Of a stretch of 64,000 nt of DNA, positions 22,401 through 28,400 are shown piece by piece. The notes beneath the pieces are model-generated. The model was not told where the DNA came from. It made no database searches and worked only from the letters and a program-made list of their open reading frames with translations. Origin of the DNA: Tubulanus polymorphus (lineage: Eukaryota; Animalia; Nemertea); NCBI RefSeq assembly GCF_964204645.1, contig NC_134026.1:4239950-4303949 (forward strand). The letters run 5' to 3'. Numbering within the stretch: position 1 is the first letter of the stretch; each line of letters begins with the position of its first letter. A program made the position numbers and the translations under genes.

Positions 22401-25400
22401 ACACAAACATACCATACTATAAACGTTGGTACCATACAAAATCAACTAATTTATTGACACAAGAGTAACGGACACACAAGATAATATATATTTGATAGTA
22501 TATAATATATATGTTTTTATGTAAATATTCTAGGATGATACATAGCAATGCTCTGGGAATGTACTACAGTGATTGGGGATGACACGCATGATAATGGTTT
22601 GAAATTGAAACAGCATGGTCGAAAATGTACGCGCGCACAAGGGATTTCAGCTGCAGTGATGCCCGCCTTTTCGAGCACAAATTAAGGACGCTTCGTCGAC
22701 CTGGGAACGAATATAACCAAGTTGGCAGCGGCTATATAAGAAGATATATATGTCCCCGGAGTAATTGCTATCTTTCAACAGGAATGAGTAGTATAGCTAG
22801 GAAACTGTATTGTGATAATCAACACTCGAGGAAATCAGCTAAAATCTTAAAAATGTGCGCACGCAGCATTTAGCAAGGTCGTTTGGTAGCAAACAAAATC
22901 TCGAACTCGTAGACACGATGATAACCGAATGAACCCTATCAAAGATATCTAATCAATTGGCAAAAACATCTCTCGAAACAAACCATTAGTCGGACACATT
23001 TACGCCGCTATGATCTAGCGAGGTTTGAAAAAAGAACTGCTCGTCGTAAACTATATAAGTTGTTGCTGCAGTAATCGTCCTCTGGCGAACTGCGTATTGT
23101 CGCGATATCGGCATTATAGATAATGACGTCAAACCGTACGGATCGGTGACATCAGAGCGTGAAGCTATGCGGCTACGAAGTAGACGATGCCGTCGACACT
23201 GCCGGTTGCCATGGTTTAAGTCATCATGGGAAACGATGAATAATAGGGGCATACGCTTCACTGCAAACAATTGACCCGATTTTGTCATGTTTTTTTGCGC
23301 GAAAAAAAATTTATAAACGGTTTCTCTATTCAATATATAACTTACTTACTAATTAACAAAATGAAATGCGATACTCTTAAAAAATATAATTACTCGACCT
23401 TGAATCGCCCCATGCTGTTACAAAGTTTTCAATTGATAAGTTCTATCATGGACTCTAAAACGATTTAGAGTCCATGGTTCTATGTGGACAGGTTTAGGTG
23501 AGGCTTTATCAATTCCATCAATACGGCTTTCCTCAAAGTTCGGCGAACTTTTCGATAAAAAAAAATTCGCTTAATCGATCCCTCTGAGTATAAGATGAAA
23601 TCAGTAGACGTCATTATACATTTCAGCCTGTAAGACTTTAATGGGCGTCATAAATCCAAAGATGAGATATTCGTAAGTTTAAATGTCTACAGGGTATAGT
23701 TCACTGTTGAAGCATTATTATTTACCATGATGTCGAAGCTTTAAGGTACCAGAGTTAATGACGAAAGGGACCACAGTGGCACTTACAATCGAGGTCGTAA
23801 ATTTCGAATGAACATTCAAAATCATTAAGGATTACTGATCAAATTTAGATAAGGCAGTTGCCGGCAATAAATGGAGAAAATACCGTGTTGATGGAAAGAC
23901 TACTTGATATTAACAGTGTTTTTGTGTTTTACCTGAGGCCGAGTACACAGTACCAACATCAAATTTAAAGCTGCCTAGAGGCTTGTTGGAGCGTATGAAG
24001 TTCCGGGATTGGAGTACCTATAGTCAAAGTTAGGAGAGGTCAAGAAAGAGAGACGACTAAGGGTATATATATATATGTATACAAGGGAGCATTCGAAAAC
24101 GCATACACCACACACACACGCACACATGTCCAAACTGGTAGCTCAAGTTTTGTGTATAATAAGAAAATTGTACCAGGTCTATATAACAATTAAACGAGTT
24201 TCTCTAATATCAACAGTTTTGCTAGCTGCTGAAACAAAAATTATTAGTTCAGCTTCTTCCCATCAAAACTGTTATGACAACAGCATGTGTGTACATAGTG
24301 AATATTAGCCGCCTAAAATGTGAGGCACAACTGGTGACGTATATAGAAGATATTGGGAATTTCATTGTGTTCCATCGGGAGTATAACGGACTGCCCCATT
24401 CAGAGATGAACTGATGCCACCCACCATCGCAGCAACGATTATGAAATATATAATGATAGTAATAATATTACAGTATGCAGAGAGTCCACCACCTACAGTG
24501 CGAAGAAGTAAGAAAGGTAATGATATAACAAGAATAATTGTATGAATTTATCTCAAAGAGATGCGAATTCACGTGAGACCTTTCGTGTGTCAAAACATTT
24601 TCCATGAATATTTGATATCAAGGCTAATTGCTATCGGCCCTTAGACTCCGTTCATATTTCACTGGCTTTCCGATTATTTCAGATAAAATCTGTATCCAGA
24701 TCTAGGACCTTAAGTTATAGAGTTTCTGGATAAAGATTTGGATCAGTACCATGGAGACATCTAACTCAAATAATGAATAGAACTGCATAAGTAAGTTTCA
24801 CAGTCGAACCTGATGATACCAAAAATGTGCTTTGGAAATTAGGACCAGTTTTATGGTTGGGGAAGGTGAAACGCCGTTTCTATCTTAAGTCTCAAGTATG
24901 GAAAAGCCCCCTAAGGTATTACTTTAAAAGATTTCATGGTCTCTGTAAATGGCCATGTCAAATTCACGATCCGAGGATAAAAAAATATCGCGGAAAATCA
25001 TCGAATTTACTAAGGTCACCCGTGAATTCACGAATGCACCCCTACGAGAGAATAAGGAAAGGAGACGACTTAGATAAAAAAAAAAGTCGCGAGATCATTA
25101 AAGGTGACAATGTATCCCATCGACGACCTGTATAGTAAGTGAATAAGAATGTATATTAAGACGACTGAAAAGTTGCGATAAAAAGAAATAGGAAAAAATT
25201 GTGAGATAGATTTTGACACAAAACTTCATGGTAAAAACTTAATCTTTTGAACGAATATTTTTGCTTAAAGCCGTTCCGCCTAAGTACTATTCAATTCTAG
25301 GCAATATTGAACGAAATAGTTTTTCTTTCAATTCATGGCTTTAACTGTAAGGATTAATTTCACGTGATTACACGAGATAAGCCCGAGGCTTTTGAATAAG

Positions 25401-28400
25401 ACTTTCATTGCGTAGGAAATCAAAGAGCTGTAATTTCATAACCCAGTAATCAAACTAGAGCTTTCGCATTCAATGAAATAAATCGTCGAGTTGTACCTGC
25501 AGGAGGAACTGGATCGATCGAATGTTTTTTTTTGCGGATTATGAATCATGAAAATGGAAACGTAGAATGCGTTGGATTCGTATCTTGATGAAATATTCCA
25601 CAAAAGTTATCAGTATATTCAAACGATATGACGTTGATATAGTATAAGTTCGCCATGAAAAACGTGACAATTACCACCAGACAAACACGACAAAAAAAAG
25701 GAAATAATTTGTCTATAGCGCCATGCATCGAAACAACACTGTGATAATGCAATACGCGTACGTATATGATAACAGAAACTGAATGCAAAAATGTTGAAAC
25801 GCTACCGGGTGCGGCATAAACGGTGCCGACATCAAACTTGAAACTACCAACTACTGTGCCCGTTCGAAGCAAGTTACGAGAGTGTAATACCTAGAAATTA
25901 AAGGCATCGTAGCAGAAATATATTCATATCAAACATGTTTACAATTGAAATGAATACAACTGGTTATACTATCATCGTGATATGATATAATATATGAGGT
26001 GTGAAACTGAAAACATCGCGACGTTCCTCTTTTTAAACGTAAGTTCGAAGCTTCAGGAATTCAAGCTGCTAGTTCATATATACATAGAGTTTGTTTCTTT
26101 CTTCAATTCGATCTTCGAAACACGATTGATATGATAGCGTCATTCCCCGTGTATTTATATCTGTACATTTCCGTTTGATGTTTAGAGGTTAAATGAACTA
26201 TATTTGGACTGAAGCGGTATAAAAAAACTACAAAAGCAACCATGCCCTAAAATAACAGCAAAATAACCACAATTTATACACAGTTAATAACATTATGTGG
26301 CTATCGATGTGGATATAAAACCTGGGTAAAATGTTATCGCTCGATACAAAAAAAACACAGCTATATCAACCAGGGAGAAAGAAAAACAGTTTCTTTTAGC
26401 AGATTCGACAATTCATCGCTGAATCTAACGGAAATAAAAAGGATGTTATTTTAAAACATAATAATATGGGGAAAACTATGCCATTTTTTCAATTATTTCT
26501 ATTCTAAAATGATCATCATATCAATTAAGTGCGATAATTTTACCTTACATGAATACATTGTATAAGGACAGTCTACGCAGTTTTTAAACTTAAATCAATT
26601 ATCTATGTATCATTGTTAAAGATTCAACAGCAATAGGGGCCTAAATGGAACATTCCACGACCCCCCTTTTCGTGTTGATTCTTTTCCAACATCGAGCAGA
26701 TATATCACTTACCATCAAAAGATGGGAAATCAAATTAAATTCAGCATAATTAAAATGGTTGCCGGCAATATCTGGATTTATCTTATCGTCTTTAAACAGT
26801 TGACTGAGCAATACAGACAGACATGCAGGATCAGAAAATTCTACTTACTGTGATGGTTATGATTTTATCAAACAACATAGCTGGAGCCATGTGAAAATCA
26901 AAGACAAAATACTGTAAACAGAAAACAGAATAAGTTAGCCATTAACTGCAGACTTGTCTCGAAAGAAACTTGATGTCGTCAGTTCAACAGTGTAAAAAAC
27001 CCACACGATTTAAGTTAGTTGATTTAACACCTACGGTGTACAGTACAAGATATAAATCTGGATCAGAATTTGTGTGTATTCAATTGATCTCAACTCGAAT
27101 TATCTGCATTAAGTGGGCTTAACTACTATCAATACATTTAGATCCTCTTTATGTATTTTTGCTATTATACATAAATTACGAATATAATTGATGCATTTGA
27201 CTATTTCAATTTTATTCTAGTGTTACTCAGTGACATTTCGTGAAAATTTTTATTCTTGGCCTTAGATCTTTTTGGTTTTACCTCGTTATAGTAAGGGCAG
27301 TTTGTGGATTCTTTAACGCTTGTATATTTCTTCACTTCGCCGACTTGTACACAGACGACTGGATCCATATTCAAACCAGCCAGTTGTCGAGCTTCAATAA
27401 TTGTTATACACACCTACGTGAAATTATAAGTTTTTCCTGATTACTTTCAAAGGGGGAGAATGACTAAACAGGATATCGTGATCAGTACGTTCTGCAGTGA
27501 AAGCTTTTAGTTACGGAGAGCATTAGTCTGCGACGCGTAAATGTCATAACAACATGAAACTGATTTCATGTCGAAGCGGTCGATCGATGCGTATCGTTTA
27601 AAATCGTTGTTTGTCCCAGAGATAAGTGATATATTGGATGCGAGGACGATGAATAGGCTTTAGGAATTCGATAAGCGACTGGACAATGATACAATCAAAC
27701 AAATCCTTGCAGAACTAATATTGCTAATGGATCGTTCGGAAGATGCGCGTAGGGTTGAAAGTGATTGCAGACAATGAGCGTCACGAGAAGCTGACGAAGA
27801 TTTAACCAAGTAGAAACAGTAAAATCACTGATCGTTATTCCAACGACACGCCAACCTCGCGCAGACCCGTAAAAAACGATGCATCACTTCTTGTCCTGCA
27901 ACGAATATGAAACGACGGCAATATGCCCGTCTTTAGTTAGACACGCCGCATTGATTTTTACCGCCAGACTGACGCGAGAGAAGGCAACGATCTACAAGAG
28001 CCCTAGTATGTTTACTAGTTCATGGAGCATAGACAGATCAAATTACAGATATCAACCGACAAGCGTCTACCAAATAAATTGTTTCCGATCTCATTACCTG
28101 GACATGTCACTGACGACATCGCTGTACATTACTCATATCACTGGCGGTGATGAGATCTATGACATGACACTGCACGGCCTCTTTGGCAATATCTTTTCTA
28201 GAGAATCAATCTTCGATAGAGTATGTGGGTGTTAGCTGGGATCCCCCAACACGGAGTACTTTTTCAAAGATCACGGGGTGCCGGCCAAATATCCTTATCA
28301 ATTCGTTTTTAAAGGCCGTGGCTCAAAAGTCTGAACTGCGAAATCAGGTTCACGCTTTCTGATGACTTTTCTTCTGCAGCTTTCATTTTGATAAAAAAAG

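Follow-up and report, generated by a model that had tools for sequence, protein, structure and literature searches.

An old pair of alternative exons likely gives the otoferlin-like gene of Tubulanus polymorphus two versions of C2B top loop 3

In silico analysis of a 64,000-nt stretch of the genome of the nemertean Tubulanus polymorphus (contig NC_134026.1, positions 4,239,950 to 4,303,949 of the forward strand, assembly GCF_964204645.1; hereafter the window) has been centred on an otoferlin-like gene, related to the hearing gene OTOF of humans, in which two 85-nt exons, A and B, encode alternative versions of one 28-residue stretch of the C2B domain. The exon pair is old, only one of its members fits the reading frame, and the gene likely yields two protein forms with different versions of C2B top loop 3 (L3). 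The exchange of one exon for the other is likely to change the grip of C2B on acidic membranes in a calcium-independent manner. The probability of this reading as a whole is put at roughly 0.6. The pair is not confined to this one copy of the gene but is widespread and already visible among isoforms deposited in databases.

Both alternative exons lie on the minus strand between an upstream constitutive C2B exon (26849..26911, minus strand, 63 nt), which ends in phase 0, and a downstream constitutive C2B exon (20407..20522, minus strand, 116 nt), which starts in phase 1. Exon A (25806..25890, minus strand) is chordate-like and is characterized by His at position 3, Gly-Thr at positions 11-12 and a weak donor (CCG/GTAGCG); exon B (23933..24017, minus strand) carries Gln at position 3 and Asn-Lys at positions 11-12. 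The two have the same length, the same phase (0-1), AG before and GT after them; the coordinates, lengths, peptides, canonical splice sites and phases are all as the original prediction, made from the sequence of the window, had described them. With either A or B alone between the flanking exons, an open, stop-free frame of 264 nt is obtained, whereas both exons together (349 nt) or neither (179 nt) cause a frameshift and, on translation, early stops, so that the claim that exactly one exon fits the frame has been borne out. The intron between A and B is 1,788 nt long, and both introns are of the GT-AG type. Exon B has no entry among the open reading frames (ORFs) of at least 90 amino acids, as had been remarked, whereas the read-through frame of exon A is listed.

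The two exons agree at 51 of 85 nucleotides and 18 of 28 residues, and in an 11-residue stretch common to both, nine of the 11 codons differ. The proportion of differing synonymous sites (pS) is 0.97, that is, saturated, and that of nonsynonymous sites (pN) is 0.21; these values, the differing codons and the isoforms of 11 other species presented below agree with the predicted old duplication under purifying selection. The ratio of nonsynonymous to synonymous substitution rates (dN/dS), suggested as a check, is far below 1, and since pS is saturated it has no numeric value. Scoring of 127,832 ungapped 28-codon segments on both strands against peptide B gave 140 for B, 92 for A and 34 for the next best segment; since all other segments score 34 or less, the likeness of A and B is beyond chance and the window contains no third copy. 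Similarly, in a tblastn search of the window with the protein of RefSeq isoform X1, the 28-residue stretch is the sole strongly doubled exon, with no third copy. An assembly artefact or an allele has been ruled out, as contigs of run X1 span positions 20330-23476 and 23450-27000 and silent-site divergence between the copies is saturated; these contigs, which are DNA-like, match the stretch with no other letters listed. Codon 19 encodes Phe in both worm exons, while elsewhere most A exons have Ile, Met or Leu and most B exons have Leu; an annelid A exon (P0438) also has Phe. The A/B identity of the worm ties for the highest among 13 species, and gene conversion may long ago have affected the 3' half.

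The occurrence of the pair in other animals has been followed through 30 protein clusters, picked mostly for many members or for lineage, and all counts of entries given below refer to the cluster members as listed. Nine of the 30 clusters contain both forms from one species, and 11 species are represented: three bivalves (Mizuhopecten, Argopecten and Mytilus edulis), two abalones (Haliotis rubra and H. cracherodii), the brachiopod Lingula, a lobster (Homarus), a crayfish (Procambarus), a psyllid (Cacopsylla), an aphid (Sipha) and a gall midge (Contarinia). In six isoform pairs of equal length, every difference falls inside the 28-residue slot. The gene model of the cricket Gryllus carries A and then B in tandem, in the same order as in the window, the exon order in other species being taken from protein models only. 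The predicted mutual exclusivity is thus supported by the frame logic, by an assembled contig joining B to its neighbours and skipping A, and by these isoforms, and B-type forms, checked on protein isoforms, are conserved beyond this species in molluscs, a brachiopod, crustaceans and insects. The isoforms of Lingula (P0376/P0542) and Mizuhopecten (P0229/P0193) also differ over their last ~60 residues, which may reflect a second ancient exon pair, presumably comparable to the alternative last exons of vertebrate OTOF.

The two forms are held apart by a small number of residues. Among 13 species, position 11 is Gly in 13/13 A exons and Asn or Ser in 13/13 B exons, position 12 is Lys or Arg in 13/13 B exons and in 0/13 A exons, and position 3 is His in all A exons and Gln in 12/13 B exons. 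In 78 of 78 species pairs, 53 of 53 of them across phyla, the summed A-A and B-B similarity exceeds the A-B similarity within species; the pairs are not independent, and the labels A and B had been assigned by eye before the comparison, which biases only the matched-versus-crossed contrast. A tree of the 28 columns places 14 of 15 B rows on one branch (support 92/90) and 13 of 14 A rows on another (92/84), with 4 of its 31 inner branches strongly supported. Because exons of the same class resemble each other across phyla, the duplication is considered old and, on these sequence comparisons, probably protostome-wide.

The chordates examined show A-like forms only. Of 89 vertebrate entries, 83 are A-like, six are aberrant models and none is B-like, and the entry of Ciona is A-like; at the protein level, duck otoferlin shares 21 of 28 residues with A and 15 of 28 with B, in line with the predicted resemblance of the vertebrate form to A. 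The protein of the hemichordate Glandiceps is too divergent to be classed and has one form in 6/6 isoforms, and no echinoderm, amphioxus or cnidarian C2B was identified with 7 of 150 representatives looked up by name. A single form despite several isoforms was noted in Eriocheir (8/8 B), Macrobrachium nipponense (7/7 B) and Mya (8/8 A-like). Such species are no evidence of loss, because at most 15 members per cluster are represented. In chelicerates, every listed entry that has the slot carries a single mixed form, which suggests that one copy may have been lost or fused there. The mixed form (His3, Gly11, Lys12) occurs in the chelicerate entries P0007, P0192, P0367, P0358 and P0572 and in the clam entries P0195 and P0191.

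The functional part of the reading is based on the position of the exon in the C2 fold. In a model of the B-form domain (mean pLDDT 70, below 50 at the tip), two strands (residues 66-74 and 83-90) enclose a loop (75-82), and the exon corresponds to residues 71-98; the best Foldseek matches of the model are mouse otoferlin entries (E 4e-13, 71% identity). The exon thus covers, in the model, the basic and hydrophobic tip of C2B L3 between two strands, and the predicted placing of the A/B differences in top loop 3 is supported by five of the ten differences lying in the modelled loop and two more at the start of the next strand. Exon positions 5, 7, 8 and 9 align with K339, L341, L342 and R343 of the mouse protein (KNLLR). 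In nanodisc-bound mouse otoferlin, C2B lacks calcium-binding aspartates and binds through the L3 tip, with L341 and L342 penetrating the bilayer and K339 and R343 at its surface (PMC12526402). The C2B domain of myoferlin binds the membrane by the same loop (PMC12264198). In the worm, the tip reads R-N-L-L-R in A and R-N-F-I-R in B, which are chemically alike, and the conserved difference is found just behind it, at the equivalents of mouse G345 and T346, where Gly followed by a non-basic residue (A) is replaced by Asn or Ser followed by Lys or Arg (B). It is proposed, with about even odds, that B, which keeps the hydrophobic tip, gains Lys or Arg, loses Gly right behind the tip and in spiralians adds Pro, would form a more basic and stiffer loop with more affinity for phosphatidylserine (PS) or phosphatidylinositol 4,5-bisphosphate (PI(4,5)P2). 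The replacement of Gly by Asn or Ser in B, together with the basic residue gained beside the lipid-facing Arg, would favour acidic lipids or shift the insertion angle.

Several points weigh against the reading as a whole, in addition to the labelling by eye and the small number of well-supported branches mentioned above. With regard to the loop, the inserting residues are hydrophobic in both forms (LL versus FI), and the net loop charge differs by +1 only (2 in A, 3 in B), so that the effect on lipid binding may be small. With regard to the two classes, the sequences of chelicerates and of clams (Mya, Mactra) combine the Gly of A with the Lys of B, the states thus not being obligatory packages, and the isoforms taken from databases represent gene models or transcript assemblies rather than tested proteins. 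The approximately unbiased (AU) test, which rejects a duplication in Tubulanus alone (p 0.019) or in nemerteans alone (p 0.024), leaves separate duplications in Spiralia and Arthropoda standing (p 0.133). With regard to the worm itself, exon A is present in neither RefSeq isoform of this species, its donor is the lowest scored (1.2, compared with 5.0 for B and 5.6-10.6 for 14 training donors, scored in-sample), and no junction on either side of exon A was seen in the contigs of four runs, among which one contig from one sample is spliced and from which rare forms are dropped.

The main rival to an effect on lipid binding is an effect on the contact between C2B and C2G. The pair would then be real and used, and the exchange would mainly change protein contacts, either at the ring-closing interface of C2B with C2G or C2F or with a binding partner; this is judged appreciably less probable than the lipid-binding effect, though the strongest of the alternatives. 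In myoferlin, residues of C2B L1-L3 outside the tip touch C2G (PMC12264198), and in closed otoferlin C2G packs on C2B (PMC12526402). The class-defining residues are located beside the inserting tip and not at it, and in many species A and B are also unlike in a strand and a short helix that belong to the same exon. On the other hand, the most consistent change is the Lys or Arg gained two to three residues after the lipid-contacting Arg, and the contact with C2G is made on the convex face, whereas the membrane is on the concave side together with L3 (PMC12526402).

A further question is whether the worm still uses both exons. RefSeq isoforms X1 and X2 both carry B, leaving A as an unannotated exon, and a 3,664-nt contig of run X3, spliced across the gene, links B to both flanking exons and skips A; its joint lies at 24014/26846 with CT..AC at cut +3 and has canonical ends. 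Of the junctions predicted for the pair, 26849>24017 and 23933>20522 were accordingly found, whereas for 26849>25890 and 25806>20522 none was seen in the contigs. Contigs of runs X2 and X4 cover exon A unspliced (25687-25958) with much intron and are uninformative on splicing, and run X5 gave one 74-nt record only on the stretch. The use of B in both RefSeq isoforms and in the spliced contig, together with the weak donor of A and the single model of Lineus, which also has B, would fit an ancient pair of which exon A has recently gone out of use in this worm, with B now constitutive. Such a loss is considered improbable. Exon A is as conserved, at the sequence level, as the constitutive exons beside it: it shares 21 of 28 residues with duck otoferlin, compared with 13/21 and 28/38 for the flanking exons, and it retains all nine residues that are invariant in the other 12 A exons. 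In a simulation of neutral decay, these nine residues stayed intact in 2.4% of runs at 0.15 substitutions per site and in 28% at 0.05. As the invariant residues are intact, a long-dead exon A, with decay older than about 0.15 substitutions per site, is excluded, whereas a very recent loss is still compatible; the contigs, for their part, lose rare variants and include one spliced contig from one sample, and their lack of A junctions is not taken to prove that the exon is silent. The worm very probably continues to splice exon A in certain cells or stages.

As for its origin, the pair probably goes back to a single duplication in the protostome stem, after which A retained the ancestral state. 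Separate duplications in spiralians and arthropods, whose copies converged on the same two residue patterns, would be allowed by the AU test, which a clade of all spiralian A plus B passes at the p value given above, and exon pairs that alter C2 domains arose several times in the synaptotagmin-family genes of invertebrates (PMC2823689). Convergence of this kind would nevertheless have to account for the same slot, length and A-then-B order (in the window and in the Gryllus model), for the recurrence in four phyla of the diagnostic residues at positions 3, 11 and 12, and for the 53 cross-phylum comparisons, all of which favour A-A and B-B; it is regarded as slightly less credible even than the recent disuse of exon A. 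The least probable alternative, that the loops are functionally near-equivalent and the pair is kept since the splicing choice sets the transcript level through unproductive splicing and decay, has in its favour that 85-nt exons turn double inclusion or skipping into a frameshift and that net charge and hydrophobic tip are similar in A and B, but class-specific residues held apart across phyla would not be needed under equivalence.

With respect to the splicing mechanism, steric exclusion between A and B has been ruled out by the 1,788-nt intervening intron. Since this intron gives no steric block, nonsense-mediated decay (NMD) is proposed as the safeguard, and transcripts with double inclusion or double skipping would probably be removed in this way; in Caenorhabditis elegans, 14 of 19 clusters whose exon lengths are not multiples of three (non-3n) depend on NMD (PMC4165533). 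RNA structure masking the acceptor of A (inverted repeat I23) has also been rejected, being unremarkable against 17 other acceptors. As regards docking-site/selector pairing, one of several known exclusion mechanisms, the best RNA duplexes on the acceptors of A and B (-24.4 and -20.4 kcal/mol) are within the range of 16 other acceptors. Two TGCATG elements, taken here to be the RBFOX motif, are present as candidates: one at 25722..25727 (minus strand), 79 nt downstream of exon A, and a second at 26822..26827 (minus strand), 22 nt downstream of the upstream constitutive exon. The motif is found within 150 nt at 3 of 39 approximate exon ends of the gene, a distance limit that was chosen after the distances had been seen. 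A (GT)n-rich tract at 24102..24129 (minus strand), about 85-110 nt upstream of exon B, is a candidate repressor site of what is assumed to be the CELF type. A similar element layout, to be taken as a lead only, is known from the unc-32 exons 7a/7b, for which, in neurons, use of the upstream exon is favoured by RBFOX and that of the downstream one is repressed by UNC-75. RBFOX-type factors might, tentatively, turn A on in a subset of tissues. A palindrome, TTGCCGGCAA, is present at 26759-26768 and 23858-23867, with two copies only in positions 1-50500. One copy follows the upstream exon by about 80 nt and the other follows exon B by 65 nt; base pairing between them might loop out both exons, or they might represent a shared intronic element or be due to chance.

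Several known systems are comparable with this pair. The closest are the isoform pairs of protostome otoferlin or otoferlin-like proteins in RefSeq and the Transcriptome Shotgun Assembly (TSA) database (Lingula anatina X1/X3, Homarus americanus X1/X2, Sipha flava X1/X2 and Mizuhopecten yessoensis X5/X8), which have the same slot and the same residue patterns; both forms are annotated there, whereas in Tubulanus RefSeq contains B only and A is unannotated. The mutually exclusive exons of invertebrate Syt1 (C2B), Syt34 and arthropod Esyt2 (Craxton 2010, PMC2823689) likewise recode part of a C2 domain in a trafficking protein. However, they belong to another gene family and have repeated origins, whereas the otoferlin pair apparently has one origin, is kept across four phyla and, unlike them, covers a calcium-independent membrane-inserting loop. 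The C2B L3 loops of mouse otoferlin (PDB 9qe2 and related; PMC12526402) and of myoferlin (PMC12264198) align with the exon, and the vertebrate proteins examined are A-like only. In dysferlin, an alternative exon likewise yields two versions of a ferlin C2 domain, C2A and C2Av1 (PMC2923515; PDB 4iqh), but in a type I ferlin, in C2A and by an alternative first exon, in contrast to the internal duplicated pair of otoferlin. No description of the otoferlin A/B pair was found in the open-access literature, including the available parts of PMC10227054, PMC10018040 and PMC2923515, with the supplements of genome-wide exon surveys outside this scope, and the word "ferlin" is absent from the 12 of 50 supplement files of PMC2823689 that were covered. 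The pair is real, ancient and located on a structurally defined membrane anchor of otoferlin, and it is apparently undescribed, as had been supposed, although its isoforms are already in databases.

The identity of the gene is based on a window exon that, used as a query, is 100% identical to P0003 (NCBI: otoferlin-like isoform X2), whose protein cluster consists solely of RefSeq isoforms X1 and X2. Against mouse otoferlin, P0003 reaches 2314 bits, compared with 1007-1148 bits against myoferlin and dysferlin; by sequence, the gene is closer to otoferlin than to dysferlin and myoferlin, and it may be a one-to-one orthologue of OTOF or a co-orthologue of OTOF/FER1L4/FER1L6. P0003 carries Pfam PF00168, PF08151, PF08150, PF22901 and PF16165, which are taken to represent the tandem C2, FerI, FerB and ferlin C-terminal domains of a type II ferlin. 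The gene occupies positions 1..50481 (minus strand): RefSeq isoform X1, aligned with the window one exon after another by tblastn, runs from its first coding exon at 50481 downward past the window start. A 60-nt in-frame cassette exon at 18532-18591 (minus strand), just 3' of C2B in the FerI linker, is part of RefSeq X1, while X2 lacks it and the run X3 contig skips it (joint 15859/20405).

Beyond the gene, exons of the sodium:dicarboxylate symporter family are found at 51995-53388 (plus strand; Pfam SDF, E 3e-12 and 7e-9), head to head with the otoferlin gene, and an ORF at 59181-59957 (plus strand) has a Pfam ISK_Channel (KCNE-like) match (E 1.7e-6). The coding-looking ORFs at 56640-57548 (minus strand), 60676-61185 (minus strand) and 62447-62740 (plus strand) have no Pfam match at E 0.01; the last of them presumably resembles a small PDZ protein. 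Multi-copy short repeats at 23445-23479 and 14427-14564 are marked by numerous loose ends and a very high contig depth, with inverted joints at the second of them, and are probably small mobile elements.

The analysis adds exon A, which the RefSeq gene model for this species lacks. The surprise is limited, since mechanisms of this kind are well known and the isoforms were already present, unremarked, in databases. C2B loop 3 has recently been shown by cryo-electron microscopy (cryo-EM) to be one of the three membrane anchors of otoferlin, and A and B are two natural versions of this anchor loop, kept apart across four phyla, which offer a ready test of its part in docking. Speculatively, and at rather long odds, the pair could be a switch more than half a billion years old, by which protostome otoferlin would be fitted with a Gly-hinged A anchor or a more basic B anchor through an RBFOX-type choice according to cell type, so that one invertebrate gene would serve fast neurosensory exocytosis as well as general trafficking or repair, while vertebrates would have kept only the A loop, which is that of their hair cells. 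By its vertebrate-like A form, the pair directs attention to those invertebrate cell types in which this form is used and thereby bears on the origin of otoferlin-dependent exocytosis.

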